Part shown: positions 13,119 through 62,130 of the stretch, piece by piece
Position numbering within the stretch: the stretch's first letter is position 1
Layout of the letters: each line of letters begins with the position of its first letter
NCBI GenBank assembly: GCA_963750935.1
Contig: CAVVSR010000014.1
Span: 834,847-898,846 of the forward strand
Reading direction: 5' to 3'
Source of the DNA: an uncultured Acidobacteriota bacterium
GTDB taxonomy: Bacteria; Acidobacteriota; Vicinamibacteria; Vicinamibacterales; 2-12-FULL-66-21
DNA: 64,000 nucleotides
Translations under genes and position numbers: made by a program
Notes under the pieces: generated by a model
What the model was told of the DNA's origin: nothing
Databases searched by the model: none
Seen by the model: the letters and a program-made list of their open reading frames with translations, nothing else

Positions 13119-13150
13119 AGCACGTGCTACGTGCTACGTGCGCACGTGCG
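13119..13150. repeat. short ACGTGCT heptamer array with 10-nt palindromes
   Basis: agCACGTGCT ACGTGCT ACGTGCG CACGTGCG starts immediately after the relA stop and fills the gap to convergent ridA. AGCACGTGCT and CGCACGTGCG are perfect palindromes. Confidence 0.7.
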
Positions 13151-13154
13151 GTCG

Positions 13155-13532
13155 TCAGATCTCGGCGATGACGTCGATCTCGACGCGCGCGTCCTTGGGG
13201 AGCCTGGCGGCCTGGATCGTGGCGCGGGCCGGAGCGGGCGACGCGAAGTAGGTGCCGTAGACCTCGTTCATCGCCGCGAAGTCGTTCATGTCGGCGAGAT
13301 AGACCGTGGTGCGGACGACGCGATCGAGGGAGCTGCCGGCCGCTTCGAGGATGGCGGCCAGGTTCCGGAAGACGCGATGAGTCTGGACGGCGATGTCGCC
13401 GTCCACCATCGTGGAGGTTTCCGGGTCGAGCGGGATCTGTCCCGACACGAACAGCAGCGTCCCCGCGCGAACGGCCTGGGAGTACGGGCCTATCGCCGCC
13501 GGGGCTGCGGGGGTCGAGACGGCCTGCCGCAT
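13155..13532 (-). CDS. ridA: RidA family enamine/imine deaminase
   Basis: 125-aa ORF, AIGPYSQAV...LFVSGQIPLDP...ARVEIDVIAEI, typical of the YjgF/RidA family. Confidence 0.9.
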   Translation of the reverse strand: MRQAVSTPAAPAAIGPYSQAVRAGTLLFVSGQIPLDPETSTMVDGDIAVQTHRVFRNLAAILEAAGSSLDRVVRTTVYLADMNDFAAMNEVYGTYFASPAPARATIQAARLPKDARVEIDVIAEI

Positions 13533-13537
13533 CGACG

Positions 13538-13729
13538 CTACGCGGCCTTGGTGACCTTGCCCGAGCGGAGGCAGCGCGTGCAGACCCGCAGCCGCTGGAT
13601 GCCGCCGTTGACCAGCGCACGGACGCGCTGGAGGTTCGGCTCGAACCGGCGCGGGGTGACGTTATGCGCGTGGCTGATGTTCCGGCCCACGACCGGACCC
13701 TTACCGCAGATTTCGCAACGTTTAGCCAT
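13538..13729 (-). CDS. rpmB: 50S ribosomal protein L28
   Basis: The internal ATG at 13729 gives a 63-aa product, [43 protein letters not shown]...SGKVTKAA, a classic L28. The longer listed ORF is an upstream over-extension. Confidence 0.9.
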
Positions 13730-13989
13730 GATAGTGAAGTGACGTCCCCGACCGGTGCGGCAGGGCCCATCATGGCCCGGCAGGGTCGGCGCAAACGACA
13801 GATTATAGCATCCGGCCCGCGCCCAGGTCCAAGCGCTGGCCAACGAATGTCGCCTCCCGCGGCGCCCCGGTCCAGACTCTTGATCGCAGCCCCCGTAATA
13901 CCGTGACAAAACACGGGGGGCGCTACGGTATGACAGTTGCAACAGGCTCAGCAGCCGGAGACGTCTTCCGGATACGGAGGTGGGATCCC

Positions 13990-14577
13990 ATGGAACCTCG
14001 TCCGATCCTGCAGGAGCAGACACCAGTCGAATACTTCAAGGAGTTGGTGGAGTCGTCGCTCGCCCGACAGCACATCAAGGCTGGCGACCTGACGGAGTAC
14101 TACCTGGTCAACCTGCTTTGCCAGTACGTCCGGCTCGACGGCGCGGCCGATGCCGAGATGGGAGAGCCGCTCGCCGTCCGCCTTGCGCGGGCGATGCAGA
14201 CGGCAGGGATGGAGCAGCGCACCCGGCTTCGCAATCTTGGCGATTTCTCCCTGTTTACGGCCGGTTTTTTCTCAGACAGCTTCAAGCGGCGCCACGTCGA
14301 CGTCGATTATTACGTGTCGATGGGAGAGTACGCGTATGGGTCGCTGAGCCGCGCCGAGGATGCCTTCCGCGAGGTCTTCGTGGAACTGTCGCGGAAGTTC
14401 GTGGGCTACAGCGACGTGCTCGCGGACATCAGCGAGCGGACGGCGATGGCGTCCAGCACCGACGTACTCCGCATGTATGAGAAGTGGCTGCGGACCGGTA
14501 GTCATCGCGACGGCCAGCGCCTCATCGAGCGCGGCATCGTGCCGAACAGCTCAGTAGGCCAGCGTTTCCTTCAGTAG
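13990..14577 (+). CDS. hypothetical protein
   Basis: The ORF is in frame from 13903. ATG 13990 is preferred because GGAGGTGGG lies 5-13 nt upstream. Coding-like composition, but I recognise no family. Confidence 0.5.
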
Positions 14578-14996
14578 TCACCTGTCCCCCTGATGCGCCA
14601 CAGGCCATGAAGGCACGTGGCGCATCGCCTACACATTTGTAATTCCCGTACAGCTCTGCAGTTCAAACTTACCGAACCAGATCGCGGGTGTCTGGCGTCT
14701 AAAGCTTCAGTAGCGTAGCCAGACGCGCCTACTTGACGGAGATACGGGTTGTAAATTGTTGCAATCAAAAGTGATAACACCACATAGCTGCCGTGGACGA
14801 GGTGCGTGAGGGACAGGTCGACTGCTGACCTGCCACCTCCCCCGCCTCGAGTCACCTCAGAATTTTCACGGTAGCGCTTCCCGGGCAAGCCGGCCGTGGT
14901 GTAAACTGACAGGATTTATTACGTGGCAAGTCCGTTGCATATCGGCCTACGAATTATTCGGCGTGGGCCGTGCGGGAGAGAAGGAGCGGAATCATC

Positions 14997-15449
14997 ATGA
15001 GCGTCAAGAAAGTGCCTGGTGGGCAGATGAACCGGGATCGGTACGCGGAGCTGAAGCGGATTCTCGAGGAGCGCCGGCGGGAAATCCTCAGCGCGGTGCA
15101 CGACAAGATTCGCGATGTGCGGACCGAGGGAGCGAACAGCACGACTCACGGAGTCCTCGACGCCGCGGAGACCTCCGAAGCGGATATTCAGGATGAGATC
15201 GAGTTCGCGCTGATTCAGATGAAGGCCGAGACGCTGACCAAGATCGAGGAGGCTCTGCGCCGCCTCGAGGAAGGCACGTTCGGCTACTGCTTCGAGTGTG
15301 GCGAGGAGATCTCCGAACGCCGCCTTCGCGCGCTGCCGTTCGCGGTCCGCTGCAAGGATTGTGAAGAGGCTCGCGAGGTCGCGCAGCAGCGCGAGCGCCT
15401 GCTGCAGCGCCGTGGTTCCGCCTCCCTCTTCCTCGATATGCAGGGCTGA
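14997..15449 (+). CDS. dksA: TraR/DksA family zinc-finger transcriptional regulator
   Basis: ATG 14997 follows the RBS AAGGAG (14981-14986). Coiled-coil region plus a C4 zinc finger, CFECGEEISERRLRALPFAVRCKDCEE. Confidence 0.85.
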   Translation: MSVKKVPGGQMNRDRYAELKRILEERRREILSAVHDKIRDVRTEGANSTTHGVLDAAETSEADIQDEIEFALIQMKAETLTKIEEALRRLEEGTFGYCFECGEEISERRLRALPFAVRCKDCEEAREVAQQRERLLQRRGSASLFLDMQG

Positions 15450-15510
15450 GCAATGACCTGGGGCGGGCCACCCGCCCGCCCGCGCACCCGTGCTACATTT
15501 CCGCTGACCT

Positions 15511-15533
15511 CCGGGGGCCACTCCGGCCCCCGG
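15511..15533 (+). terminator. GC-rich hairpin downstream of dksA (possible terminator, no U-tract)
   Basis: CCGGGGGCC-actcc-GGCCCCCGG, a 9-bp perfect stem about 60 nt after the dksA stop. Confidence 0.35.
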
Positions 15534-15608
15534 GGGCGGCGAACAGACAATCCCTGAACAGATGAATCGCGGCTACTGGTGGGGTCGGCCGCTCGAGGAA
15601 CATCGCCC

Positions 15609-18062
<2,454 letters not shown>

Positions 18063-18068
18063 GGCGAC

Positions 18069-18590
18069 ATGCCCGACCCCGATCGCCTCCAGCATCAGCG
18101 CACCTTCGACGGCAAGGTCTTCGACGTGGACCGGGACACGGTCCGGATGCCGAACGGCCGCGAGGTCACCGTCGACGTGATCCGCCATCCGCCGTCCGCG
18201 GTGATTGCCCCGGTGCCCGAACCAGGACACGTCATCCTCATCCGCCAGTACCGCTATGCGGTGAACCGCTGGCTGTGGGAGCTCCCGGCCGGGAGCGTTG
18301 ACGAAGGGGAAACTCCCGAACAGGCGGCGCGGCGCGAGTGCCACGAGGAGATCGGCCAGGTTCCCGACACCATCGTCCGGCTCGGGTCGATGTTTCCGAC
18401 GCCCGGCTACTGTGACGAGGAGATGTTCTTCTTCCGTGCCTCCGGCCTCAGCGTTCCCCCCGAAGCGGCGGAACTGGACGAGGACGAGGACATCGAAGTC
18501 CGCACGTTCACCCTCAAGGACGCGCGCGAAATGGTCCGCCGCGGCGAGATCACCGACATGAAGACCGTCGTCGGGCTCTCGCTCCTCTGA
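18069..18590 (+). CDS. NUDIX hydrolase (ADP-ribose pyrophosphatase-like)
   Basis: 173-aa ORF with the Nudix box GSVDEGETPEQAARRECHEEIG. Confidence 0.85.
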   Translation: MPDPDRLQHQRTFDGKVFDVDRDTVRMPNGREVTVDVIRHPPSAVIAPVPEPGHVILIRQYRYAVNRWLWELPAGSVDEGETPEQAARRECHEEIGQVPDTIVRLGSMFPTPGYCDEEMFFFRASGLSVPPEAAELDEDEDIEVRTFTLKDAREMVRRGEITDMKTVVGLSLL

Positions 18591-18591
18591 T

Positions 18592-19539: not shown

Positions 19540-19572
19540 GGTGTGCTCGATCGTCGCCGTTTCCTCGCGCGA

Positions 19573-24568: not shown

Positions 24569-24606
24569 AAAAAAAGGCTGGCGATCCAGCGGATCACCAG
24601 CCTTTT
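24569..24606. terminator. bidirectional rho-independent terminator
   Basis: AAAAAAA-GGCTGGCGATCC-agc-GGATCACCAGCC-TTTT, between the convergent methyltransferase and secreted-protein genes. Confidence 0.75.
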
Positions 24607-25646: not shown

Positions 25647-25652
25647 CGAGCC

Positions 25653-33052: not shown

Positions 33053-33372
33053 GAGAAATCACTAATCCCTAGTCCCGACTCCCGCGTCCCGACTCCCGCG
33101 TCCCGAGTCCCGACTCCCGCGTCCCCAATTCCCCCCGACACTGGCGGCAGGAACGCGACCTCATCGCCGGGGGCGAGCGGGGTCGTGAACTTCGCGTACT
33201 CCTCGTTGACCGCGCACGAGATCACGCCGGTGTAGCGCGCCAGCTCGGGATGCTCGCGCTCGAGCAGGTGCCAGACGTCCTGTGCCGTCGCGGCGTCCGG
33301 GACCTCTCGTGCCAGCTCTCCGGTCCCGGCGATGTCACGCAGCCGGGCGAAGAGGCGGACGTTCACGCGCAT
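33037..33372 (-). CDS. moaD: molybdopterin synthase sulfur-carrier subunit MoaD, with 30 extra codons after the canonical C-terminal GG
   Basis: MRVNVRLFARLRDIAG...GDEVAFLPPVSGG is 81 aa. The ORF then continues as IGDAGVGTRDAGVGTRESGLGISDFSCLTS through the heptamer array and overlaps the prfA start by 16 nt. Confidence 0.75.
33065..33137 (-). repeat. GGGACGC/GGGAGTC heptamer array (G-rich on the minus, sense, strand)
   Basis: The plus strand reads GTCCCGA CTCCCGC GTCCCGA CTCCCGC GTCCCGA GTCCCGA CTCCCGC GTCCCCA ATTCCCC. Located between the MoaD GG codons and the prfA ATG. Confidence 0.9.
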
Positions 33373-40285: not shown

Positions 40286-41815
40286 ATGTTGCCGTCCTTC
40301 GTTTCGAGCATGGTCGATCTCATCACCCGCACCTCGACCGATCTGCCTCCCGACGTGCGCGCCGCGATGCGGGTCGCGGTGGCCACGGAAGAGAAGTCGT
40401 CGCGGGCCGGGCAGGCGCTCAGCATCATCGCCCAGAACATCGATCAGGCCGCCTCGTGCGAAGGGCCGATCTGCCAGGACACCGGCATGCCGACGTTCGA
40501 AGTGCGGGTTCCGGTCGGCATCAACCAGATCTGGATGAAGCAGCAGATTCGCGAGGCGGTTGCCGAGGCGACCCGGCGCGGCAAGTTGCGGCCCAATTCC
40601 GTCGATTCGATCACCGGCGAGAACTCCGGCAACAACCTCGGCCCTGGTACCCCGATCGTGCATTTCGAGCAGTGGGAAGAGCCGCACATCGAAGTCAGAC
40701 TGATCCTGAAAGGCGGCGGCTGCGAGAACACCAACGCGCAGTACGCGCTGCCCGCCGAGCTCGATCACCTCGGCCGCGCCGACCGCTCGCTCGACGGCGT
40801 CCGCAAGTGCATCCTGCACGCGGTCTGGAAGGCGCAGGGCAAGGGGTGCAGCCCCGGCGCCGTCGGCGTCTGCATCGGCGGCGATCGCACCTCGGGCTAC
40901 CTCCACGCCAAGGAGCAGCTGTTCCGCACACTCGACGACAGCAACGGCGATCCGCGGCTGGCCGCGCTCGAACAGTCGGTGATGGACGAAGGGAACCGTC
41001 TTGCGGTGGGGCCGATGGGCTTCAGCGGCAAGACGTCGCTGATCGGGTGCAAGGTCGGTGCGCTCAACCGGCTGCCCGCCAGCTTCTTCGTGTCGGTCGC
41101 GTACGACTGCTGGGCGTTCCGCCGCCTCGGCGTCCATCTCGACGCCTCGTCTGGCGAGATCACGAAATGGCTCTATCGCGAGGACGCGCCGTCACAGCCG
41201 ATGTTGTCGCCCGAGGAGGTGGCCGCCGGCTTCCCGCGCACCGGCCGAGAGATTCCTCTCGAGGCGCCGATCTCGGACGAGCAGATTCGATCGCTCCGCG
41301 TCGGCGACGTGGTCCTGGTGTCCGGTCGCGTCTACACCGGACGCGACGCCGTCCACGCCCACCTGATGAAGCACGAGCCGCCGGTGGATCTGCGCGGCGG
41401 CGTGCTGTATCACTGCGGGCCGGTCGTGGCGAAGGAGGGAGACGGCTGGCGCATCAACGCCGCGGGGCCGACCACCAGCATCCGCGAAGAGCCGTACCAG
41501 GCCGACATCCTCGCTCGTTACGGCGTGCGCGTCGTGATCGGCAAGGGCGGGATGGGGGCGAAAACACTGGCCGGACTCCAGGCCTCCGGCGCCGTCTACC
41601 TCAACGCCATCGGCGGCGCGGCGCAGTTCTACGCCCGCTGCATCGAGCGCGTCGACGGCGTCTCGCTGACCGAGTTCGGCACCCCCGAGGCGATGTGGCA
41701 CCTCCAGGTCCGCGATTTCCCGGCCATCGTCACCATGGACGCGCACGGCAACAGCCTGCACAAGGACGTCGAAACGGAGTCGGGCAAGCTGCTGGCGACG
41801 CTCACGCTGCGATAA
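40286..41815 (+). CDS. class I (Fe-S) fumarate hydratase / tartrate dehydratase family, fused alpha-beta
   Basis: 509 aa from ATG 40286. GPICQDTGMPTF in the alpha region and SGRVYTGRDAVHAHL...LYHCGPV in the beta region. Confidence 0.9.
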   Translation: MLPSFVSSMVDLITRTSTDLPPDVRAAMRVAVATEEKSSRAGQALSIIAQNIDQAASCEGPICQDTGMPTFEVRVPVGINQIWMKQQIREAVAEATRRGKLRPNSVDSITGENSGNNLGPGTPIVHFEQWEEPHIEVRLILKGGGCENTNAQYALPAELDHLGRADRSLDGVRKCILHAVWKAQGKGCSPGAVGVCIGGDRTSGYLHAKEQLFRTLDDSNGDPRLAALEQSVMDEGNRLAVGPMGFSGKTSLIGCKVGALNRLPASFFVSVAYDCWAFRRLGVHLDASSGEITKWLYREDAPSQPMLSPEEVAAGFPRTGREIPLEAPISDEQIRSLRVGDVVLVSGRVYTGRDAVHAHLMKHEPPVDLRGGVLYHCGPVVAKEGDGWRINAAGPTTSIREEPYQADILARYGVRVVIGKGGMGAKTLAGLQASGAVYLNAIGGAAQFYARCIERVDGVSLTEFGTPEAMWHLQVRDFPAIVTMDAHGNSLHKDVETESGKLLATLTLR

Positions 41816-41964
41816 CTCCCAATTTCCCAACTCCCAACTCCCAACTCGGAATCGTTCGAGACATCTGGGTAGAAGTCGCGGCGATCGGGCAGTTCGGTGC
41901 GTATTGAGCCCAGATGTCTCGGATGACTCTGCTTGGAAGTTGGGAGTTGGAAGTTGGGAGTTGA
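41814..41964. repeat. 151-nt GGGAGTT-heptamer palindromic element that fills the convergent gap
   Basis: Left arm AACTCCC AATTTCCC AACTCCC AACTCCC AACTCGG. Right arm GGAAGT TGGGAGT TGGAAGT TGGGAGT TGAC. Inner perfect 13-bp inverted repeat CGAGACATCTGGG (41857-41869) / CCCAGATGTCTCG (41909-41921). Confidence 0.9.
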
Positions 41965-44332: not shown

Positions 44333-44432
44333 TGTCGATGGCTTCCAGCTCACAGCTGTCAGCCGTCAGCAGTCCACCGGCACGCGACTGCTGACGCTGA
44401 TGGCTGGCAGCTGACGGGACTGGAGAGCTGTC

Positions 44433-47513: not shown

Positions 47514-48224
47514 ATGGAGTCCAGGCACAAACTCGTTCTCTTTGACATCGACGGGACGCTGGTGCTGACCGGCGGCGCCGGCATCCGCGCCATGAACCGC
47601 GCCGGCCAGTCGGTGCTCGGCGTGCCGCGCATTCTCGACGGCGTCCCGGTCGCGGGGCGCACCGACTGGAGCATCTTTCGCGACGCGCTCGACCGGATCG
47701 GCCGCGACCTGGACGGCGAGCTGTTCGCGCGGCTCCGCGAGGCGCACGTCGCCAACCTGCGCGAGGAGATTCTCGCGCGCGGCGACGGCGTCAAGGCGGT
47801 GATGCCGGGCGTCCACGATCTGCTGTCGGCGCTGGGCTCGCGCGGCGACGTGTCGCTCGGACTGGTGACCGGCAACTTCCACGAGGCGGCGCGGATCAAG
47901 CTCGAACACTTCGACCTGTGGCGGCACTTCCGCTGCGGCGCGTTCGGCGAGGATGCGGTCGATCGCAACGATCTGGTACCGTTCGCGCTCGAGCGCGCGC
48001 GCGGCTGCGGCGTGCCAGACGTCCCCTACGAAGACGTCCTCGTGGTCGGCGATACGCCGCACGACGTGGCATGCGCGGCGGCGGTGGGCGCCGTGCCGAT
48101 CGCGGTCGCGACCGGGACGTTCACGGTCGACCAGCTGCGCCAGGCCGGCGCGCCGGTGGTGCTGTCCGACCTGAGCGACACGGCGGGATTCGTGCGGCTG
48201 ATGGACGACGGTGCGGCGCGATGA
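47514..48224 (+). CDS. HAD-superfamily hydrolase (phosphoglycolate phosphatase-like)
   Basis: KLVLFDIDGTLV (motif I), LVTGN (motif II) and VVGDTPHDVACA (motif IV). ATG 47514, with in-frame GTGs at 47508 and 47511. Confidence 0.8.
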   Translation: MESRHKLVLFDIDGTLVLTGGAGIRAMNRAGQSVLGVPRILDGVPVAGRTDWSIFRDALDRIGRDLDGELFARLREAHVANLREEILARGDGVKAVMPGVHDLLSALGSRGDVSLGLVTGNFHEAARIKLEHFDLWRHFRCGAFGEDAVDRNDLVPFALERARGCGVPDVPYEDVLVVGDTPHDVACAAAVGAVPIAVATGTFTVDQLRQAGAPVVLSDLSDTAGFVRLMDDGAAR

Positions 48225-48486
48225 GCCACGTGCTAGCAGGCTGCTGCGAACGTGCTGACAGGTCTCGCCGAAGCGCTGATGCGCCGAAGGGCGGACTTGG
48301 CGATGCTCTGCCTCGCGCCGATGCAGCTTCGGCGCGCGCAGGGGCGTGGCTTTGGTCCGCCGAGGCCTGGGGCGTAGGTCAGTGAGGCGCGCCAAGGGCG
48401 CGCCCCGCCGGAAGCGGAGCGGGGATCGTGGGGCCCCCGCGAGCGACGGCGATGGGGGTCCGGGGGCGAAGCCCCCGGGTCTATAA

Positions 48487-48582
48487 GGAAGCGAATGGGA
48501 CCCGGTGGTCCTCCCGGTCTTCAAAACCGGTCGCTGCCCGCGTTGCGGGCAGGCTGGGTTCGACTCCCAGGCGCTTCCGCCA
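48487..48582 (+). tRNA. selC: tRNA-Sec (anticodon UCA)
   Basis: 96 nt, GGAAGCGA...GCGCTTCC-G-CCA. 6-bp D-stem GGGACC/GGTCCT with the 4-nt loop CGGT. Anticodon loop CUUCAAA. Long variable arm CTGCCCGC-GTT-GCGGGCAG. T-arm CTGGG-TTCGACT-CCCAG. Layout parallels E. coli selC. Confidence 0.9.
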
Positions 48583-48589: not shown

Positions 48590-48638
48590 ACGTGCTACGT
48601 GCCACGTGCTACGTGCTACGTGCTACGTGCGACGTGCT
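48590..48638. repeat. ACGTGCT heptamer array (7 units)
   Basis: ACGTGCT ACGTGCC ACGTGCT ACGTGCT ACGTGCT ACGTGCG ACGTGCT, between the tRNA-Sec 3' end and the stop of the convergent DUF218 gene. Confidence 0.9.
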
Positions 48639-51067: not shown

Positions 51068-51175
51068 GTTCTACGGGTTCTACGGGTTCTACGGGTTCTA
51101 CGGGTTCTACGGGTTCTACGGGTTCTACGGGTTCTACGGGTTCTACGGGTTCTACCAGGTTCTACGGGTTCGACG
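51068..51175 (+). repeat. 9-nt tandem array GTTCTACGG (9 perfect plus about 3 degenerate units)
   Basis: Perfect units from 51068 to 51148, then GTTCTACCA, GGTTCTACG and GGTTCGACG. Lies in the divergent region between the dinB-like gene and the histidine kinase, and is preceded by GATAAT (51061-51066). Confidence 0.95.
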
Positions 51176-52997: not shown

Positions 52998-53005
52998 TCG
53001 TCGTC

Positions 53006-53068
53006 GGGACGCGGGACTCGGGACTCGGGACGCGGGACTCGGGACTCGGGATGCGGGACGCGGGATGC
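53006..53068 (+). repeat. GGGACGC/GGGACTC heptamer array (9 units, G-rich on the plus strand)
   Basis: GGGACGC GGGACTC GGGACTC GGGACGC GGGACTC GGGACTC GGGATGC GGGACGC GGGATGC, beginning 9 nt after the response-regulator stop. Confidence 0.95.
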
Positions 53069-53887: not shown

Positions 53888-54990
53888 TCGCCGACTTCGA
53901 GCTGCCGGCGTCGCTCGAAGCCGCGGAGCCGCCCGAGGCCCGCGGCCTGGCGCGCGATTCGGTGCGGCTGCTGGTGTCGAACACCGCGGACGACACGATC
54001 ACCCACGCGCGGTTCAGCGATCTGCCGCAGTGGCTGGACGAGGGCGATCTGATCGTCGTCAACACCAGCGGAACGCTGAACGCCGCGCTGTCGGTGGACG
54101 CGGACGGCCGTCCGTACGACCTGCATCTCTCGACCCGCCTGCCGGGCGGCTTCTGGAGCGTCGAGCTGCGGGTGTTCGAGCAGATGAAGTCGCGGCCGAC
54201 ACGGGACGCACGCGCGGGGCTGCACCTGCGATTGCCCGGCGGCGGGAATGCCACGCTGCTGGCGCCTTACCCGTTCGATCGTTCGCCGGCGAGCGGCTCG
54301 CGCCTCTGGCTGGCCGCTCTCGATCTTCCCGAGGCCGTCGAGCCGTACCTCGCGCGGCATGGATTTCCGATCCGCTACGGGTACGTGCCGGAGCCGTGGC
54401 CGGCGTCGATGTATCAGACGATTTTCGCGACCGAGCCCGGCAGCGCCGAGATGCCGTCAGCCGGCCGCCCGTTCACCGACGCGCTGGTGACGCGGTTGAT
54501 CGCGCGTGGCGTGCAGGTTGCGCCGCTCCTGCTGCACACCGGCGTGGCCAGCCTGGAAGATCACGAGCCGCCGTACGAAGAGTTCTACCGTGTCTCGGCG
54601 GAGACGGCCGAGCGGGTGACCACGGCGCGCCGTCGCGGTCATCGGATCATCGCGGTCGGCACCACGGTTGTTCGCGCCCTCGAGACCGTGACCGACGGGA
54701 ACGGTGTCACCCACCCCGGGTCGGGCTGGACCGGCCTGGTGATCGGGCCGGACCGCCCGCTGCGCTCGGTCGACTCGCTGATCACCGGCCTCCACGAGCC
54801 GCGTGCTACCCACCTCGCCATGCTCGAACGGGTACTCGACGCCGCATCCCGCGCCCGCTCGCGTGATGCGCGCGTCACCGAGAGTCTCTGCGGTCCCTGC
54901 CATCTCGACCGCGCCTACGCCGAAGCCCGCGCCGCCGGCTACCTCTGGCACGAGTTCGGCGACTCCCACCTGATCCTGGGACCTCAATAG
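53869..54990 (+). CDS. queA: S-adenosylmethionine:tRNA ribosyltransferase-isomerase family protein
   Basis: 373-aa ORF. FELPASL...RDSVRLLV...GDLIVVNTSGTL...VGTTVVRALE are typical of QueA. Overlaps the SDR gene by 19 nt. Confidence 0.8.
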   Translation: MAAAGVIADFELPASLEAAEPPEARGLARDSVRLLVSNTADDTITHARFSDLPQWLDEGDLIVVNTSGTLNAALSVDADGRPYDLHLSTRLPGGFWSVELRVFEQMKSRPTRDARAGLHLRLPGGGNATLLAPYPFDRSPASGSRLWLAALDLPEAVEPYLARHGFPIRYGYVPEPWPASMYQTIFATEPGSAEMPSAGRPFTDALVTRLIARGVQVAPLLLHTGVASLEDHEPPYEEFYRVSAETAERVTTARRRGHRIIAVGTTVVRALETVTDGNGVTHPGSGWTGLVIGPDRPLRSVDSLITGLHEPRATHLAMLERVLDAASRARSRDARVTESLCGPCHLDRAYAEARAAGYLWHEFGDSHLILGPQ

Positions 54991-55055
54991 GGATTCGGGA
55001 AGCGGGATTCGGGAAGCGGGATTCGGGAAGCGGGAACGCGGGGACGCGGGGAGCC
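54990..55055 (+). repeat. GGGATTC/GGGAAGC heptamer array grading into GGGGACGC units
   Basis: (GGGATTC GGGAAGC) x3, then GGGAACGC GGGGACGC GGGGAGCC. It starts on the last base of the queA stop codon and ends 22 nt before the next ATG. Confidence 0.95.
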
Positions 55056-55076
55056 GGTTATGTTAGCCTCCCCATC

Positions 55077-55940
55077 ATGTCCCCACTCACCAGACGCGAG
55101 GCGCTTGCCGGCGCGGCGGCCATGCTGGCTGCGCCATCCATAGCATCCAGCCAGTCACCCGGTCAGGGTAAAGCCGTGGTGAAGGGCCGCCTGAAACAGT
55201 CGGTGTGCCGGTGGTGCTACGCCAAGATCCCGCTCAACGACTTCTTCAAGGCGGTCGCGGATATGGGTCTGACCGCGGTCGATCTCCTCACCGAGAAGGA
55301 GTGGCCGATCGCGGCGGAGCACGGCCTGATCTGCTCGATGGGATCGGGCGCGGGCGGCGGCATCAACGACGGCCTGAACGTCAAGGGCAATCACGACAAG
55401 ATCGTCGCCAGCCTCGAGCGCGCCATTCCGATCGCGGCGAAGGCCAAGGTGCCGAACCTGATCACGTTCTTCGGCAACCGCCGCGGCATGGGTGACGAGG
55501 AGGCGGCGGCCAATTGCGTCGAGGGGCTCAACCGCATCAAGAAGGTGGCCGAGGATCACGGCGTGACGATCTGCCTCGAGCTCCTCAACAGCAAGGTCGA
55601 TCACAAGGACTACCACGGCGACCACTCGGCGTTCGGCGTCAACGTGGTCAAGGCGGTCGGATCACCGCGCGTGAAGCTGCTCTACGACATCTACCATATG
55701 CAGATCATGGAAGGGGATCTGATCCGCACCATTCGCGACAACCGCGAGTACTTCGCGCACTTCCATACCGGCGGCGTCCCCGGCCGCCACGAGCTCGACG
55801 ACACCCAGGAAATCCAGTGGCGATCCGTCGCCACGGCCATCGTCGACATGGGCTTCCAGGGCTACTTCGCGCACGAGTTCATCCCCGTGCGCGATCCGCT
55901 GCCGTCACTGCGCGAAGCAGTCGTGCTGTGCGACGTTTAA
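55077..55940 (+). CDS. TIM-barrel sugar phosphate isomerase/epimerase (hydroxypyruvate isomerase-like) with Tat-type signal
   Basis: N-terminus MSPLTRREALAGAAAMLAAPSIA. Xylose-isomerase-like TIM-barrel segments (CLELLNS, HFHTGG, GYFAHEF). Confidence 0.8.
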   Translation: MSPLTRREALAGAAAMLAAPSIASSQSPGQGKAVVKGRLKQSVCRWCYAKIPLNDFFKAVADMGLTAVDLLTEKEWPIAAEHGLICSMGSGAGGGINDGLNVKGNHDKIVASLERAIPIAAKAKVPNLITFFGNRRGMGDEEAAANCVEGLNRIKKVAEDHGVTICLELLNSKVDHKDYHGDHSAFGVNVVKAVGSPRVKLLYDIYHMQIMEGDLIRTIRDNREYFAHFHTGGVPGRHELDDTQEIQWRSVATAIVDMGFQGYFAHEFIPVRDPLPSLREAVVLCDV

Positions 55941-55962
55941 GCACGTTCGCACGCAGCACGTA
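55939..55962. repeat. degenerate AGCACGT (reverse ACGTGCT-family) units
   Basis: aaGCACGTtcGCACGcAGCACGTaa, starting within the stop codon. Only about 3 imperfect units. Confidence 0.3.
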
Positions 55963-55982
55963 ACCCGCGCTACGATTTGCCC

Positions 55983-56918
55983 ATGACGACTTCCTCATTC
56001 CTCCGCCGCGCCGCCTGGTTCGCCGTCGCCGGCGCGCTGATGCTCTCCACGCTGCCCGTCCGCGGGGCGGACAAGCGGATTGTGCTGATTGCCGGCAAGC
56101 CGAGCCATCCGCCCGGCATGCACGAGTTCCGCGCCGGGTGCCTGCTGTTTCAGAAAGCGCTGGCCGCGGTGCCCGGCGTCACCGTTCAGGTTTACGACAT
56201 GGGCTGGCCGGCGAAGATGGTCGACGGCGCGCGCGTCGACGACAGCGCCGCCCTCGACACGGCCGACGCGGTGCTGATCTATGCGGACGGCGGCAAGGGT
56301 CATCCCGCGATCCAGGGCGAGCGGCTCAAGGTCATCGAGGCGCTGGCCGCAAAGGGCGTCGGCCTCGGCTTCGCGCACTACGGCGTCGAGGTCCCGACCG
56401 GCGTGCCTGGCGACGCACTGCACCAGCTCATCGGCGGGTTCTACGAGGACAAGTTCTCGGTCAATCCGATGTGGACGCCGTCGTTTCAGAAGATGCCGAA
56501 CCATCCGGTGACGCGCGGCGTCGGACCGTTCGCGACCCACGACGAGTGGTACTTCAACATGCGCTGGACCGCCGATCCCGCGGTGAAGTCCCGCATCACG
56601 CCGATTCTCGTGGATACGCCGAGCGACGACGTGCGTGACGGGCCGTACGTGTACCCGCGCGGGCCCTACGAACACGTCGTGGCCGACAAGGGCAAGGTCG
56701 AAACGATGATGTGGGTCTACGAACGGCCCAACGGCGGGCGTGGGTTCGGGTTCACCGGCGGCCACACGCACGCGAACTGGGGCGACGCCAACCAGCGTCG
56801 GGTCATGCTCAACGCGCTGCTGTGGATCGCGAAGATCGACGTGCCGGCCGGCGGCGTCGTCGACAAAATCACCGCCGAGGATGTGACCCAGAACCTCGAC
56901 GACAAGCGGAAGAAGTAA
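55983..56918 (+). CDS. ThuA domain-containing protein (secreted)
   Basis: Signal peptide, then KRIVLIAGKPSHPPGMHEF...ADAVLIYADGG...HDEWY, typical of ThuA-like class I glutamine-amidotransferase-like folds. ATG 55983, with an in-frame TTG at 55977. Confidence 0.8.
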   Translation: MTTSSFLRRAAWFAVAGALMLSTLPVRGADKRIVLIAGKPSHPPGMHEFRAGCLLFQKALAAVPGVTVQVYDMGWPAKMVDGARVDDSAALDTADAVLIYADGGKGHPAIQGERLKVIEALAAKGVGLGFAHYGVEVPTGVPGDALHQLIGGFYEDKFSVNPMWTPSFQKMPNHPVTRGVGPFATHDEWYFNMRWTADPAVKSRITPILVDTPSDDVRDGPYVYPRGPYEHVVADKGKVETMMWVYERPNGGRGFGFTGGHTHANWGDANQRRVMLNALLWIAKIDVPAGGVVDKITAEDVTQNLDDKRKK

Positions 56919-56927
56919 GCCGGCGGT

Positions 56928-57587: not shown

Positions 57588-57695
57588 CGGCACGTTGACT
57601 GGTATCCGTTCCTGGCTGCCGGGCGCCCCATCGCCGCCGTGGCATGAGTGTCCCCTCTCAGAGGTAGGATACGTTCGTTTCAAGGAAGGATCCCG

Positions 57696-59345
57696 ATGGT
57701 GGCTGGGCTTTGCCTCATGCTTGTCGCCGTGCTGTGGGCGCCGCAGCAGGCGGCCCCGGTGCGCGACGCCAGGGCGACGCCGGGCGGCACCGCGACAGTA
57801 CGCGGCCGGATCACGGCCGCTGCCAGCGGTCAGCCGCTCCATCGCGTCCGCATCACGCTCAACGGCGCGGTGCAGAACGCGCCGACCGGCGTCACCAACA
57901 CGCGCGGCGAGTTCGAAGTCACCGACGTCCCGCCAGGTGTCTATACCCTCACCGTCGCGCGAAGCGGCTATCTCACACTCCAGTACGGCCAGCGGCGTCC
58001 GCGCGAAGCCGGACGCACGCTCGAGCTGGCCGCCGGCCAGGTGCTGGAGAAGGTGGATATGCAGATGTTCCGCGGCGCAGCGATCGCCGGACGCATCACC
58101 GACGAGCTCGGCGATCCGGCTGCGGGCGTCCGCGTCGAGGCGATCGAGCTGCGCTACATGCGCGGCAGGCGGGTCGCGGTGCCAGCCCGAATCGCCACGG
58201 CCAATGACGCCGGCGAGTACCGGCTCGGCGGCCTCGAACCCGGCAGCTACCACGTGCGCGCGACCTCGACCGAGATGTGGGCGGCCGAGGACGGCAAGCA
58301 GACGTACGCCTACGGCGCCACGCTGCATCCGGGCGTGCCCGGAACCGATCAGGCCCAGAGCATCACGCTTGCCGTCGGCCAGGATCAGGGCGGCGTCGAC
58401 TTCAGGATGATCGCCGGGCGCGCCGCACGGCTGACCGGGGTCGTCGAAGACGCGGCAGGCAATCCGCTTGCGGATCAGACCGTCAACGTCGACGTCATCA
58501 CGCGCACGGTCGGCGGGGCGCTGCTGAGCGCCGGCTTCGGCGGCCGCGCCAGAACCGACGCCAAGGGCGGGTTCGACTTCGCCACGCTCGCACCCGGCGA
58601 ATACATGGTCTACACGGGCGCGCAGACGGAGCGCGTGGCGGTGCCGGCGGTGCTCGGCGAGGGCGACGTCGAGCACGTCGTGTTGTCGCCTCGCAAGCCC
58701 ACCGTCGTCAACGGCATGGTGATCACCGACGAGCAGACGCCGCCGCCCTTCCCCGCGGCACGCATCCGCGTCGCGGCGATCGGCGCCGATCCTGCCCAGG
58801 CGCTGCCGCAATGGGGCGCACCTGGTGAATCGGCGGTCAGGCCGGATTGGGCCTTCAGAGTGGGCAACGTCGAGGGGCCGCACCTGTTCCGCGTCACAAG
58901 CCTGCCCTCCGAGTGGATGCTGAAGGCCGTTACGCTGGGCGGCCGGGACATCACCGACCAGCCGCTGACGCTGATCCGCGGCGCGCCGGACGTCGACGGC
59001 CTGCAGATTGTGATCAGCCGCAAGGGCGCGAAGGTCAGTGGTGAGGTTGCCGATGCCGGCGGCGCACCCGCACCTGACGTGACCGTGATCGTCTTCGCCG
59101 AGAACCCGGCGCAGTGGGGCGTCGGCTCACGCTTCGTTCGCGCGACCCGTCCGGACGACGCAGGCCGGTTTTCGATCGCGGGCCTGCCCGCCGCTGCCTA
59201 TCGCGTCGCGGTTCGGACCGTCATTGCCGACGGCCAGTGGGAGGACCGCGAGTTCCTGCTGGAGCTGATGAAGGACGCGGTTCGAGTCGAGCTGGCCGAG
59301 TCCGGCGCTGAAGCCATCAAGCTGACGACGGTGGAAGGACGATGA
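57696..59345 (+). CDS. carboxypeptidase-regulatory-like domain protein (secreted)
   Basis: ATG 57696 follows AAGGAAGGA. Signal peptide, then repeated CarboxypepD_reg-like modules (VRGRITAAASGQPL...TNTRGEFEVTDVPPGVYTLTV, AGRITDELGDPAAGVRVEA...). Confidence 0.8.
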   Translation: MVAGLCLMLVAVLWAPQQAAPVRDARATPGGTATVRGRITAAASGQPLHRVRITLNGAVQNAPTGVTNTRGEFEVTDVPPGVYTLTVARSGYLTLQYGQRRPREAGRTLELAAGQVLEKVDMQMFRGAAIAGRITDELGDPAAGVRVEAIELRYMRGRRVAVPARIATANDAGEYRLGGLEPGSYHVRATSTEMWAAEDGKQTYAYGATLHPGVPGTDQAQSITLAVGQDQGGVDFRMIAGRAARLTGVVEDAAGNPLADQTVNVDVITRTVGGALLSAGFGGRARTDAKGGFDFATLAPGEYMVYTGAQTERVAVPAVLGEGDVEHVVLSPRKPTVVNGMVITDEQTPPPFPAARIRVAAIGADPAQALPQWGAPGESAVRPDWAFRVGNVEGPHLFRVTSLPSEWMLKAVTLGGRDITDQPLTLIRGAPDVDGLQIVISRKGAKVSGEVADAGGAPAPDVTVIVFAENPAQWGVGSRFVRATRPDDAGRFSIAGLPAAAYRVAVRTVIADGQWEDREFLLELMKDAVRVELAESGAEAIKLTTVEGR

Positions 59346-60967
59346 TCGCGCGTGTGCTCGTGCTCGTGATGGCCGTCATCGTGCTGGCGTCGGCCCCGTC
59401 GGCCGCGCAGACCGCCCCGGCGCCGCCCTCGCCCGAGAAGCCCGCCAGCATTCGCGGCCGCGTGACCGCGGTGGACACCGGACGGCCGCTGCGTCGCGCG
59501 CGCATCACCCTGCGCAGCGTGTCCGAGACGGCGGGCAACGCGCCGATCGTGGCGAACAGCAATGTCGCGGGCCACTTCGAGCTCGAGAACGTTCCGCCTG
59601 GCGGCTACATCGTGCACGTCGCGAGAGCGGGATACGAGGGCAGCCAGTACGGGCAGCGGCGGCCCGGCGACCGCGGCATGACCATCGACGTCGCCGCCGG
59701 CCAGGCCGTGACCGGCATCGACGTCGTGCTGGCGCGGGCCGCGGTGTTGTCCGGCCGCGTCTTCGACGACCTTGGGGAGCCATACGCCGGCGTCCGTGTC
59801 GACGCGCTCACGACCCGGTACTTGCGCGGCCAGCGCGTGCCGGCGCCGGCCTCGGTCGCCACCACCGACGATCTCGGCTACTACCGCTTCTCGGGTCTGG
59901 CGCCCGGCCGCTACTACGTCGTGGCCTCGTCCACCGAAACGTGGAAGACGGCGAAGAACGAAACCCACGGCTACGCGTCCACGTACTTTCCGGCCGGTGG
60001 CCTCGACACGGCGCAGCTCATCACCCTCGGGCCGTCCGAGCAGCGCACCGACCTGAACATCACGCTGTCCAGCAGCCGCGCCGCGCGCATCAGCGGCCGC
60101 GTGCTGCGCGAGAACGGCGAACCCTCGCCGGCCGCCGGCGTGCAGCTGTCCTACAGCTATCCCGGTGCGATCATGGTTGCCGGATCGCGGACGGTGCGAA
60201 CCGGCGGCGACGGGTCGTTCGAATTCAAGGACGTGCCCGGCGGCGTCTACATGGTCGGCGGCGGCAGCGCGGACCAGATCGTCACCGTCGCCGGCGCCGA
60301 CATCGACAACATCGTGCTCGTGCCGAAGACCGGCAGCGTCGTCACCGGAACGATGGTGACCGACGACGGCGTGGCGCCGCCGTTTCCTTCGTCCGGCGTG
60401 CGCGTGACGCTGACGGCGCCGTTCGCGAAGGTCCTGCCGACCGGGTATGTCAACGCCGTCGATCCGAATTGGTCGTTCAAGCTGACCAACCTGGGCGGGC
60501 CGTTCATGTTCCGCGTCGCCGGCCTGCCGCCCGAGTGGACGCTGACCTCGGTCCGGTTGAACGACAAGGACATCACCGACGTGCCCTGGGACGTGCCCAC
60601 CGGCGGCAAGGAGATCGCCGGGCTCCAGATCGTCGTGTCGCGCCGCGTCGGGCGCATTTCCGGCTCGGTCCTCGACGGCCGCGGCAAGCCGTCGTCCGCC
60701 GCGACGATCCTGGTGTTCCCGGAGGACAGCGATCACTGGATTCCTGGATCGCGGCTGGTCAAGACCGCGCGGCCCGGGCCCGACGGAGCGTTCACACTCC
60801 GGGACCTGCCGGCCGGTACCTATCGCGCGCTGGCCCGCGACTACGTCGAGGAAGGACAGTGGGAAGATCCGAAATTCCTCGAGAGCGTCCGCGATGCCGG
60901 TGTGCGGGTCGTGCTCGCTGACGGCGGGACGGAGTCGGTCACGCTGAAGCTGCCGGCCGTGCGCTGA
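59342..60967 (+). CDS. carboxypeptidase-regulatory-like domain protein (tandem paralogue)
   Basis: ATGA overlap with the previous gene. Same architecture, and alignable by eye along its length (IRGRVTAVDTGRPL...GHFELENVPPGGYIVHV...). Confidence 0.8.
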   Translation: MIARVLVLVMAVIVLASAPSAAQTAPAPPSPEKPASIRGRVTAVDTGRPLRRARITLRSVSETAGNAPIVANSNVAGHFELENVPPGGYIVHVARAGYEGSQYGQRRPGDRGMTIDVAAGQAVTGIDVVLARAAVLSGRVFDDLGEPYAGVRVDALTTRYLRGQRVPAPASVATTDDLGYYRFSGLAPGRYYVVASSTETWKTAKNETHGYASTYFPAGGLDTAQLITLGPSEQRTDLNITLSSSRAARISGRVLRENGEPSPAAGVQLSYSYPGAIMVAGSRTVRTGGDGSFEFKDVPGGVYMVGGGSADQIVTVAGADIDNIVLVPKTGSVVTGTMVTDDGVAPPFPSSGVRVTLTAPFAKVLPTGYVNAVDPNWSFKLTNLGGPFMFRVAGLPPEWTLTSVRLNDKDITDVPWDVPTGGKEIAGLQIVVSRRVGRISGSVLDGRGKPSSAATILVFPEDSDHWIPGSRLVKTARPGPDGAFTLRDLPAGTYRALARDYVEEGQWEDPKFLESVRDAGVRVVLADGGTESVTLKLPAVR

Positions 60968-60986
60968 TGGGGCAGTTGATCTTCCG

Positions 60987-61085
60987 TCTAGAGAGAGACG
61001 AATAAGACGTGTCAATTCCCAACTCCCAACTCCCAACTCCCAAATTGGACAATTGGGAATTGGAGGTTGGGGATTGGGAGTTGAC
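60987..61085. repeat. TCTAGAGAGAGACG box plus GTCAA-terminated GGGAGTT-heptamer palindrome
   Basis: 60987-61000 is TCTAGAGAGAGACG. 61011-61046 is GTCAATTCCC(AACTCCC)3AAATT, followed by the loop GGAC. 61051-61085 is AATTGGGAATTGGAGGTTGGGGATTGGGAGTTGAC, the inverted copy, followed by a T7 run. Confidence 0.9.
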
Positions 61086-61099
61086 GCGCTGCGCTTTTT

Positions 61100-61954
61100 T
61101 TACGCGTCGGCCGACCAGCGCTTGACGAGAATCGCCCGGGCGTAGAGCAGCTCGAAGCCGCGCCGCATCACGTTGTCCTGCGAGCGCGTGCCGGGTGCGG
61201 TGGCCACCACCGCGAGACCGCAGCCGGCGGCCTGCGCCTCGAGCAGGCGGTGCTGCACCAGCGCCTTCTGCACGCCACGGCCGCGGAACGCGGGCAGGGT
61301 GCCGGCGCCCGCCATCTGCGCGATGTCGCCGTCGATGCGCATCGCCGCTTCGCCCACCGGTGTGCCGTCGATCCGCGCCAGGTACCGCACCAGGCCGGGC
61401 ATCGTCGCGTAACTGTGCAGGGTCTCTTTGAGCTGCTCGCGCGACAACGTGTCGTCCGGCACGCTGCCGGTGCCGTCGAGATTGAGGAAGGCATCGATGG
61501 CGATGTCGGCCCAGACGTCGAAGTCGCCGTCGCGGAGTGGTTCGACGGTGACGCCGGCCGGCATCTCGTCGGGCATTGTGCCGTTGATCGGGCACGCCAG
61601 CACGTTCTCGAAGCCGTGCAGCCCGTAGCCGCGATCGGTCAGCGCGCCGCCGAGCGCCGGGTCGGTGAGGATCGACATCTCGATGCGCACCGGCTCGCCG
61701 CGGTCGCGCCACTGGTCTTCGATCTCGGCCAGCGCCGCCATGTCCAGCGGCTGATCGAAGCCAAGGCCAATCAGCTTGTTGATCGGGGAGCCCTGGCCCG
61801 CGAACACGGCGACGCCGCCGCTGATCGGCAGCACCAGCGGCCCCATATCCTGGCCCGCCCCGTTGCTGCCGTAGTCGGCGAACAACGCGCACATCCGGCC
61901 TTCCGCACGGTCGATCCGGGCGCCGAGCGTCGAGTCAGCAAACATGTCGCGCAT
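61100..61954 (-). CDS. GNAT-family N-acetyltransferase
   Basis: 284-aa ORF. The C-terminal acetyl-CoA binding region (MAGAGTLPAFRGRGVQKALV) is typical of GNAT. Confidence 0.8.
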   Translation of the reverse strand: MRDMFADSTLGARIDRAEGRMCALFADYGSNGAGQDMGPLVLPISGGVAVFAGQGSPINKLIGLGFDQPLDMAALAEIEDQWRDRGEPVRIEMSILTDPALGGALTDRGYGLHGFENVLACPINGTMPDEMPAGVTVEPLRDGDFDVWADIAIDAFLNLDGTGSVPDDTLSREQLKETLHSYATMPGLVRYLARIDGTPVGEAAMRIDGDIAQMAGAGTLPAFRGRGVQKALVQHRLLEAQAAGCGLAVVATAPGTRSQDNVMRRGFELLYARAILVKRWSADA

Positions 61955-61970
61955 TGTACGCCTCGGTGAC

Positions 61971-62040
61971 GGGAGTCGGGACGCGGGACTCGGGACGCGG
62001 GACGCGGGACGCGGGACGCGGGGACGCGGGACGGGGACTG
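61971..62040 (+). repeat. GGGACGC heptamer array (about 10 units, G-rich on the plus strand)
   Basis: GGGAGTC GGGACGC GGGACTC GGGACGC x4 GGGGACGC GGGAC GGGGACTG, 17 nt upstream (antisense side) of the GNAT start codon. Confidence 0.95.
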
Positions 62041-62066
62041 GAGCATCTCAGACCCGGGCATGAGGT

Positions 62067-62130
62067 TTTGGGAGTTGGAAGTTGGGAGTTGGGAGTTGAC
62101 AACCATCCCCATCCCCGTCTCTCTCTAAGA
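62067..62130. repeat. half-element: GGGAGTT heptamers plus GTTGAC plus CGTCTCTCTCTAAGA box (inverted copy of 60987-61046)
   Basis: TTTTGGGAGTTGGAAGTTGGGAGTTGGGAGTTGAC...CGTCTCTCTCTAAGA. Its reverse complement aligns with the left element. It overlaps the kinase stop codon (62125-62127). Confidence 0.85.

Follow-up and report, generated by a model that had tools for sequence, protein, structure and literature searches.

Tandem arrays of heptanucleotides between bacterial genes have been known since 1990, when short tandemly repeated repetitive (STRR) sequences were described in heterocystous cyanobacteria (Nostoc/Calothrix) (Mazel et al. 1990, as cited in Rehm et al. 2015), and such arrays were characterised in Xanthomonas and Nostoc in 2015. 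It has been reported that the GGGAATC (GGGNATC) arrays of Xanthomonas and the GGGGA(C/T)T arrays of Nostoc are 89-93% intergenic, lie nearer to the 5' neighbouring open reading frame (ORF) regardless of its orientation, and in some cases overlap stop codons (Rehm et al. 2015, PMC4692102). In the same study, divergent spacers were under-represented, inverted pairs were frequent, related species shared occupied spacers with arrays of different length, strains were variable, and four units were clearly preferred; the repeats formed G-quadruplexes (G4) in vitro, and no function or regulatory role was identified. TAACTGA direct repeats, mostly 2-6 copies of this single A/T-rich unit just upstream of start codons, were described in Beggiatoaceae, cyanobacteria and Bacteroidetes, and a post-transcriptional role was proposed for them (MacGregor 2015, PMC4679880). 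The present analysis concerns the heptanucleotide arrays in a stretch of 64,000 nt (hereafter the window, meaning the whole stretch of DNA analysed) from an uncultured Acidobacteriota bacterium (GenBank assembly GCA_963750935.1, contig CAVVSR010000014.1). A first-pass annotation made from the letters alone had not recognised these arrays as any described element. With the three precedents above this judgement falls: the window, a Vicinamibacterales-like chromosome segment of a soil bacterium, adds Acidobacteriota to the hosts of this known class of arrays. The window arrays are hypervariable microsatellites. Our best guess at their function, inferred mainly from position and in our view slightly more likely than not, is that as self-renewing slippage arrays they would supply hairpin or G4 structure where transcription units end.

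At least four unit families coexist in the window: GGGANNC (family 1), GGGAGTT/AACTCCC (family 2), ACGTGCT (family 3) and CAGCNGT, together with one array of the 9-mer GGGTTCTAC. Like the repeats of Rehm et al. (2015), all units of families 1 and 2 have the form GGGANNN, and at all 5 of the 5 independent family 1 sites no more than 16 nt separate the 5' end of the G strand from a gene boundary. The window arrays are likewise intergenic, occur on both strands, overlap stop codons, include inverted pairs able to form hairpins, occupy spacers that are shared with relatives and vary there in length and sequence, and have no tie to surface or virulence genes. They differ in the phylum of the host, in the units (GGGA(C/T)(G/T)C and GGGAGTT instead of GGGAATC), and in being longer, with 6-17 tracts and no preference for four units in what is a small sample of 14 array copies. 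Furthermore, G-less heptamer families coexist with the G-rich ones, one array replaces a stop codon (that of moaD), and in family 2 the C arm comes first, so that the G strands diverge between fixed GTCAAC termini, whereas the Xanthomonas pairs are described as convergent.

STRR sequences, as cited in Rehm et al. (2015), resemble the window arrays in that several types of heptanucleotide unit stand in tandem at many intergenic sites of one genome, and differ in belonging to cyanobacteria with genomes of lower G+C. The STRR units are presumably different from those of the window, and we know of no dispersed palindrome with fixed termini described for STRR. The TAACTGA repeats are also intergenic tandem heptamers found at many sites per genome beside housekeeping genes; unlike them, the window arrays comprise several families, are longer and occur mostly at the 3' ends of genes. 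Two further classes were considered and rejected. The units, of 7 or 9 nt, follow one another without a gap, unlike the 25-40-nt repeats of a CRISPR array, which are separated by unique spacers of similar length. A phase-variable contingency locus does not fit neighbours that are housekeeping genes, a promoter-proximal boundary that is fixed while the interior varies, and a location outside ORFs except for the moaD tail, although the period is no multiple of 3. No paper with these exact unit strings and none on repeats in Vicinamibacteria was returned by the literature search.

The window was scanned with Tandem Repeats Finder (TRF) and by direct reading of the sequence (Table 1). At a TRF score of at least 50, ten non-overlapping arrays of period 7, 14 or 21 were found, compared with means of 0, 0.03 and 0.2 for these three periods in 30 dinucleotide-preserving shuffles at the same score. 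Ten of the eleven arrays listed in the first-pass annotation were recovered by TRF where it had placed them. The eleventh, which it had called weak (55939-55962), falls below the threshold and is nevertheless a shrunken copy of a true array, because its spacer, with 2 ACGT cores in the window, has 4, 7 and 11 in the orthologous loci L204, L207 and L081, respectively. Two heptamer structures were missing from that list, the CAGCNGT hairpin at 44337-44432 and the degenerate ACGTGCT units at about 48226-48262. The picture of a dense, spacer-confined repeat system with a shared architecture was upheld, including the contact with stop codons, which is seen at TGA/AGCACGT (13118), TAA/CTCCC (41815), TAG/GGATTC (54990) and TAA/GCACGT (55940). 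Its wording that the arrays lie strictly between genes applies to all of them except the array at 33065, which starts at the C-terminal GG codons of a moaD gene without a stop codon.

Four close relatives were available for comparison: L204 (ENA ERZ25039547, 89-97% nucleotide identity to the window), L207 (ENA ERZ25039531, 90-97%, a long-read-like assembly with frameshifts), L081 (an ENA soil contig, 88-91%) and L205 (a JGI contig, 86%), so that the flanks are overall 86-97% identical. All array sites covered by these loci are occupied in each relative, apart from the half element at 62067, whose 33-nt core (GTCAAC plus 4 units) is identical in L205 and absent in L204 and L207. The outer limits of the arrays do not move: on one side stands a stop codon or the end of a gene, on the other a -10-like box or a start codon. 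In the interiors, whole units or blocks of 14 and 21 nt have been gained, lost or replaced. In the queA spacer, for example, the array starts at TAG/GGATTC in the window, L204 and L207 and at TAG/GGACAC in L081, and ends at the same -10-like box in all four, with 9, 15, 12 and 8 G tracts in the window, L204, L207 and L081, respectively. The units between these limits are (GGGATTCGGGAAGC)x3 in the window and x4 in L207, (GGGATGC)x9 in L204, and mixed in L081. Between the response regulator and adh_short genes, the window has 9 G tracts, L204 has 10 and L207 has 8. The array upstream of the GNAT gene has 10, 17, 6 and 6 in the window, L204, L207 and L205, with the gene-proximal units common to all; the L204 GNAT protein is identical to that of the window, but L204 is a different strain. 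Searches for exact matches to the window's RelA and to its MoaD with the tail gave no hit. The family 2 hairpin at 61011 has 4+4 units in the window, 4+5 in L207 and 3+1 in L205, and its termini are mutated in L204. Whole-unit changes together with perfect 14- and 21-nt blocks point to replication slippage or unequal exchange, and perfect higher-order blocks such as (GGGATTCGGGAAGC)x3-4 and (GGGATGC)x9 to recent expansion. Polar growth of the arrays from the gene-proximal end was considered and rejected, as the queA site varies mostly near the gene and the GNAT-upstream site at its distal end. In the distant relatives L082, L083 and L206 (QueA 76-77% and GNAT 65% identical), the window's arrays are mostly absent and others are present, such as GGCAACT x6 in L083.

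An origin of the arrays in assembly or sequencing error has to be weighed here. Contigs built from short reads are prone to end at arrays, the L081 contig begins at the edge of the array between the response regulator and adh_short genes, several family 2 matches lie within 100 nt of contig ends (among the matches listed), and the L207 assembly carries frameshifts. However, arrays in the same spacers were found in at least seven independent assemblies (L081, L204, L205, L207 and L239-L241) from different samples and sequencing centres, so that the arrays are not artefacts; we regard this explanation as already refuted and give it next to no credence.

The same comparison bears on a neutral explanation, in which the arrays are functionless or selfish by-products, i.e., slippage-prone microsatellites kept by their own expansion rate wherever selection allows. 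The big differences in length and units between close relatives, the many unrelated units that have only a 7-nt period in common, and the failure of Rehm et al. (PMC4692102) to find a regulatory role agree with this. The retention of the examined sites in close relatives, apart from the half element at 62067, argues against it, as does the alternation of arrays with canonical terminators in convergent spacers that is described next. On balance we consider the neutral account possible, with a substantial minority of the probability.

The boundary reading that we favour is drawn from the arrangement of the spacers. Arrays would persist, as self-renewing and slippage-prone sequence, in the only DNA that is free of coding constraint. 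Their possible structures are hairpins (family 2, family 3 and CAGCNGT) and G4 (family 1), which would act at transcription-unit ends in a terminator-like, 3'-end-protecting or insulating manner, and would substitute for canonical hairpin-plus-U terminators where these are absent. Two of the six convergent spacers in the window have classical terminators of a hairpin and a T run (about 9530-9565 and 24569-24606), and the other four have array-built hairpins. These four spacers (relA-ridA, fumarase-next gene, tRNA-Sec-DUF218 and 60968-61099) are almost wholly filled by arrays, and the first and third are essentially array only. A role as boundary elements is suggested because array hairpins and canonical terminators are in this way complementary across the convergent spacers. 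Five arrays stand between co-directional genes; in such spacers the array is preceded by the stop codon of the upstream gene and followed by a conserved -10-like box near the next ATG. The only array in a divergent spacer is that of the 9-mer, between the DinB-family and histidine kinase genes. The arrays do not have the form of intrinsic terminators, i.e., a GC-rich hairpin with an immediate U tract; a T run follows 61011-61085 only. Consensus terminator sites in the 44-64 kb region numbered 8 against 6.6 expected by chance, i.e., without excess.

Besides the two in convergent spacers, a classical hairpin and T-run terminator was observed at 7819-7849; two of the three (9530-9565, 24569-24606 and 7819-7849) are bidirectional, with flanking A and T runs. 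As classical terminators exist in the genome, array-filled spacers are not its sole type of gene end.

Where a start codon comes after an array, a conserved -10-like box was observed only about 6-13 nt upstream of it (window 55060-55079, 55965-55985 and 61940-61970, and the same in L081, L204, L205 and L207), namely TTATAGT/TGTTAGCCT before 55077, TACGAT-N6-ATG at 55983 and TACAAT before GNAT. Boxes so near to the starts suggest leaderless mRNAs or mRNAs with very short leaders, as judged from the sequence. Between 51195 and 64000 the window, L204 and L207 form a mosaic with blocks of 89-97% identity. L207 is without a 2.3-kb segment bearing the TPR gene, and the end of this indel falls at the family 1 array that precedes GNAT. 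A further length difference between L204 and L207, of about 360 nt, lies in a spacer rich in arrays (L204 2745-3316), which contains ACGTGCG arrays, the 9-mer CACGACGGG and CGATCAC units.

Table 1 Heptanucleotide and related arrays in the 64-kb window, with their context and predicted folding
Feature	Position	Strand	Context	Fold (kcal/mol) and z score
Family 3 array, ACGTGCT, ~4 units	13119-13150 (TRF 13120-13150)	+	whole 36-nt spacer; convergent relA/spoT stop 13118 and RidA-like (L-PSP) stop 13155	-20/-18; z -2.8/-3.2
Family 1 array, GGGASKC, 10 G tracts	33063-33137 (TRF 33066-33125)	-	sense strand G-rich; from moaD GG codons to 12 nt before prfA ATG (33052)	
Family 2 long palindrome: (AACTCCC)n arm, ~85-nt inner palindromic core, (GGGAGTT)n arm with terminal GTTGAC	41814-41964 (TRF arms 41814-41847 and 41933-41963, inverted pair AACTCCC ... 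GGGAGTT)	.	entire spacer (151 nt); convergent fumarase stop (41815) and next gene's stop (41967)	-101/-85; z about -10
CAGCNGT heptamer hairpin with inverted copies	44337-44432 (TRF 44353-44374)	.	co-directional spacer	-61.5; z -5.9
Degenerate ACGTGCT units	about 48226-48262		directly after stop codon at 48224	
Family 3 array, ACGTGCT x7	48590-48638	+	tRNA-Sec 3' end (48582) and convergent DUF218 stop (48642)	z -2.5/-2.8
9-nt array, (GTTCTACGG)x11.9 = (GGGTTCTAC)n; G3N6 motif present	51068-51175	+	divergent DinB-family gene (start 51011, -) and GAF histidine kinase gene (start 51220, +)	both strands below shuffles in structure; z +5.8/+5.9
Family 1 array, 9 units, 21-nt higher-order period	53006-53068 (TRF 53005-53065)	+	8 nt after response-regulator stop (52997); downstream, conserved motif CCTGTCCATTAGTCCAGTG, then adh_short gene	
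Family 1 array, (GGGATTCGGGAAGC)x3 and degenerate units	54990-55055 (TRF to 55054)	+	first G is last base of queA stop TAG; 3' end just before -10-like box and AP_endonuc_2 gene start	
Contracted family 3 array, AGCACGT orientation	55939-55962	-	directly after TAA stop at 55940; ends 10 nt upstream of TACGAT-N6-ATG (ThuA-like gene, start 55983)	
Family 2 short palindrome: GTCAA and 4 units, 9-nt loop, 4 units and TTGAC	61011-61085 (TRF 61013-61083)	.	convergent stops 60967 and 61100	-52/-51; z -8.5/-9.4
Family 1 array, 10 G tracts	61971-62040 (TRF 61970-62038)	+	G-rich strand antisense to flanking - strand genes; 16 nt upstream of GNAT start (61954)	
Family 2 half element, 4 units and TTGAC, no partner arm	62067-62100 (TRF 62068-62098)	+	24 nt after TPR gene stop (62125)	

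Gene positions were taken from a rough codon-bias gene map and Pfam matches. The window has 63-73% G+C and carries the housekeeping genes relA/spoT, lon, prfA, moaE-moaD, fumarase and queA, as well as genes for a GAF histidine kinase with its response regulator and for CarboxypepD_reg-domain proteins. The closest species-representative genomes by QueA are metagenome-assembled genomes (MAGs) of Acidobacteriota/Vicinamibacteria with only 64-67% identity, and the named homologues are 'Vicinamibacterales bacterium'. The gene upstream of the 48590 array is not protein-coding; it is a tRNA-Sec gene (48487-48582; ARAGORN, and Rfam RF01852 with 68.9 bits), and the ACGTGCT x7 array starts 8 nt after its end. 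Nothing besides this tRNA was found in an Rfam search of the window. A 9-nt repeat, CACCGCCGC x5 (94% matches), was observed at 7206-7251 in a stretch without gene-caller assignment; it may be coding, since a period of 9 is a multiple of 3.

Folding was predicted with ViennaRNA including G4 energies, with z scores against shuffles. The family 2 palindromes form very stable hairpins (z -8.5 to -10.5), and the family 3 arrays form modest hairpins (z -2.5 to -3.2). Watson-Crick structure in family 1 is not unusual (z of at least 0), and an RNA G4 is part of the minimum free energy structure in three of four G strands. The first-pass annotation had pointed to the canonical G4 motif and a possible i-motif and had suggested a structured-DNA or structured-RNA element family; taken as a model, this would make the arrays one G4/i-motif family in which G4 formation is the selected property. 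The formal motif (G3N1-7) is indeed present in families 1 and 2 and in the 9-mer GGGTTCTAC, and absent from ACGTGCT and CAGCNGT, which have no G tracts. As a unifying property G4 fails, because most other heptamers in the relatives (TCTGTCC, GTCTCTT, TTTGCAT, CGAATCA and GGCAACT) are also without G tracts. The proposal can point to the canonical G4 motifs of the window, seven of ten of which lie inside arrays, to the at least 6 G tracts kept by all family 1 orthologues, to the predicted RNA G4, and to the very similar Xanthomonas and Nostoc repeats that form G4 in vitro. On the other hand, the family 2 hairpin would outcompete a three-tetrad G4, the predicted fold of the 9-mer array contains no G4, and the 6-17 tracts show no preference for four, unlike those in Xanthomonas. 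We therefore judge a G4-selected element family to be quite unlikely.

Family 2 behaves as a dispersed palindrome. JGI metagenome contigs were scanned for GGRRRTTGGGAGTTGAC, and the counts that follow are among the matches listed. Matches lie on at least 120 contigs, next to unrelated genes, mostly from soil or rhizosphere and of 62-72% G+C; the window itself has three copies. A typical element is (G)TCAA(CTCCCAA)n, a variable loop of 10-60 nt and (TTGGGAG)nTTGAC, with a length from 46 to about 160 nt, and a partner arm was found at 65 of 84 ends. All elements are extragenic. Flanking genes were called by codon bias and counted within 150 nt, which gave 53 stop codons and 31 starts; the stop codon is at most 20 nt away in 46 of the 53 cases (median 8 nt), and the starts lie at a median of 53 nt. 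Where both sides could be assigned, divergent starts flanked 1 of 24 elements and convergent stops 7 of 24, compared with 17 and 29 of 204 background spacers. The neutral account described above fits arrays that are flush with stops and about 50 nt from starts, as if excluded by constrained DNA alone, and also arms without compensatory signal. It is opposed by the fact that palindromic pairing is the rule, and by one consensus with GTCAAC termini on so many contigs, for which local slippage alone is insufficient.

Long copies of family 2 have in common a palindromic core of about 85 nt (window 41845-41935, L124 12040-12125, L149 1035-1125 and L161 1-95) with 68% column identity, the motif GGGTGAAA and only few compensatory pairs. 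An Rfam search with this core gave no match; judged on its sequence, it could be the core of an element like a miniature inverted-repeat transposable element (MITE), or a small structured RNA. The contig L092, syntenic with the window at 15-28 kb (Lon 80% identical), bears family 2 elements, and therefore the family spans a wider clade. Family 2 is a short, imperfect, multi-copy extragenic palindrome, as are repetitive extragenic palindromic (REP) sequences, bacterial interspersed mosaic elements (BIME) and REP doublets forming hairpins (REPIN), and like these it is dispersed at gene 3' ends between convergent or co-directional genes. In this position REP sequences act on the upstream gene by way of termination, translation and the stability of its mRNA. 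Unlike REP, family 2 has arms made of tandem heptamers in variable number, GTCAAC termini instead of a GTAG-type head, and a median distance of 8 nt from the stop codon, and it is not known to be associated with a REP-associated tyrosine transposase (RAYT). Two other ideas about family 2 were rejected. The GTTGAC terminus is hardly an outward -35 box, as TANNNT was found 16-18 nt downstream in only 2, 0 and 0 of 124 ends. In viral contigs no family 2 elements were found, and the 31 matches to the 17-mer there are isolated or coding, in low-GC phages and without arrays, which speaks against a phage origin. The base after the GTTGAC terminus is A in 32 of 84 cases.

These data also bear on the possibility that family 2 is a non-autonomous element of MITE or REPIN type, spread by a transposase encoded elsewhere and with arms that expand secondarily; the same might apply to the seeds of the other families. 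This would explain the same termini GTCAAC...GTTGAC and the same unit beside unrelated genes, the core shared by long copies, the presence or absence of the half element 62067 among close relatives, and an element of L092 at a site that is empty in the window. Of the features of a MITE, the inverted termini GTCAAC/GTTGAC are present; no flanking direct repeat or target-site duplication was found at the ends read, and the comparison of filled with empty sites shows no clean insertion. Family 2 was not linked to any transposase (no systematic transposase search was made), the arms diverge in place, unit by unit, and the viral contigs hold no copies. Taken together, a mobile origin is unlikely in our estimate.

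Beyond these families, the property in common is the 7-nt period and not G richness, because arrays of this period are built from otherwise unrelated units. Other Acidobacteriota have AATCTTA, CGGACAG and GATCAGT, Chloroflexia have CAGTGAT and others, and Rubrobacteraceae have AGTTCTC; GGCAACT, TCTGTCC, GTCTCTT, TTTGCAT and CGAATCA were found in soil contigs which, apart from L083 with its GGCAACT array, bear family 2 as well. Soil contigs also contain inverted heptamer pairs (L183 418-501, TCAATGC/GCATTGA; L192 2313-2494, CAAATCC/TTGGGAT) and perfect one-armed arrays (L083 6813-6856, GGCAACT x6; L089 10295-10349, TCTGTCC x7.9), and all of these four contigs but L083 also bear family 2. In the TRF spectrum of 787 kb of related loci, a set biased by having been chosen for family 2, period 7 was found 153 times, period 6 three times and period 8 eighteen times. 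In a Gemmatimonas MAG (L069 6973-6993), GGGAATCGGGAATCGGGACGC was observed directly after the queA stop codon, so GGGA-type heptamers stand at the end of queA in another phylum too.

A strict period with unrelated units could be expected of multimeric sites for a protein that occupies about 7 nt per subunit, either an RNA binder of the cold-shock/S1 or CsrA type or a nucleoid protein. Each family 1 or family 2 unit contains GGA, and the same kind of role was proposed for the TAACTGA repeats (MacGregor 2015, PMC4679880). However, the units are too diverse for one sequence-specific binder, the arrays occur in both orientations relative to transcription, and no candidate protein was identified in this analysis, which makes such binding sites an improbable explanation.

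The array between moaD and prfA is a special case. The ThiS/MoaD-family protein is encoded at 33130-33372 on the minus strand, and its Pfam match reaches the last profile position. No stop codon follows the GG codons, and the ORF continues for 30 codons through the array to 33037, 15 nt inside prfA. Among the 119 closest MoaD clusters with the PPVSGG motif, 55 end at GG, 12 have tails of 1-7 residues and 52 have tails of at least 8 residues; 33 of these 52 long tails are rich in G/R/D/S, the type encoded by a GGGANNN array. Three relatives with 58-61% MoaD identity (L239, L240 and L241), one of which is the Vicinamibacterales MAG GCA_035700625.1, have the same order thiD-moaE-moaD-array-prfA-prmC-HIT, with a G-rich sense strand of 9-15 G tracts from the GG codons to the prfA ATG. 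The read-through ORF lies at 1639-2003 in L239 and 5394-5717 in L241, and in L241 the stop codon of the tail overlaps the prfA start (ATGA). As read from these genomes, an array of constant orientation has been retained here throughout the order, which could be due to selection or to continual re-seeding by GGGGGGA, the conserved sequence of the GG codons. For the neutral account, the overwriting of the stop codon without gene loss in 52 of 119 homologue clusters is a further argument, and the persistence of the array with fixed orientation is an argument against.

A bolder idea is that the stop-less moaD array is a functional translated linker and that heptamer arrays in general are tunable boundary elements of Vicinamibacterales transcription units. 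Ribosomes passing moaD would go on to translate the array, unwinding its quadruplex as they do so, and termination at or near the prfA start would make synthesis of the release factor depend on translation upstream. The primary MoaD product would in this case be a precursor from which the array-encoded tail is removed to expose the GG terminus, and the strength of a boundary would be set by the number of units. We consider this combination improbable; if true, it would give a testable function to the 35-year-old puzzle of heptamer repeats.

Several observations weigh against the favoured boundary reading. Arrays are also found upstream of genes or in a divergent promoter region (33065, 61971 and 51068), and closeness to stop codons could come from promoters and ribosome-binding sites excluding arrays 5' of genes. 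Array length varies several-fold among close relatives, which argues against tight functional constraint, and the retained moaD array could be accounted for by GGGGGGA re-seeding. Shuffled sequences are more structured than the C strands of family 1 and than either strand of the 9-mer array (up to z +5.9). Arm complementarity in family 2 is 0.81 within an element against 0.84 between elements, and wobble-type mismatches show no sense-transcript bias (44 vs 47), so that there is no sign of RNA-level compensatory selection. The structured RNA that the first-pass annotation had also envisaged is thus not borne out as a selected property by these family 2 tests. The neutral alternative stays strong, since variable arrays, diverse units and covariation tests with a negative outcome are all what it would lead one to expect.

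Compared with what was described before, the phylum, the unit sequences, the longer arrays, the G-less families, the architecture of family 2 and the unexpected read-through of a stop-less moaD are different. The lineage is a dense multi-family example, with about a dozen arrays in 64 kb and both G4-prone and G-less units, and it adds close relatives with turnover at the level of single units and one site conserved across the order. This material allows a comparative test of structure versus period versus sequence. Vicinamibacterales are abundant soil bacteria, in which the arrays seem to interrupt assemblies made from short reads; they also lead gene callers astray, as seen in the array-encoded tails of MoaD, and are strain markers of the variable number tandem repeat type.

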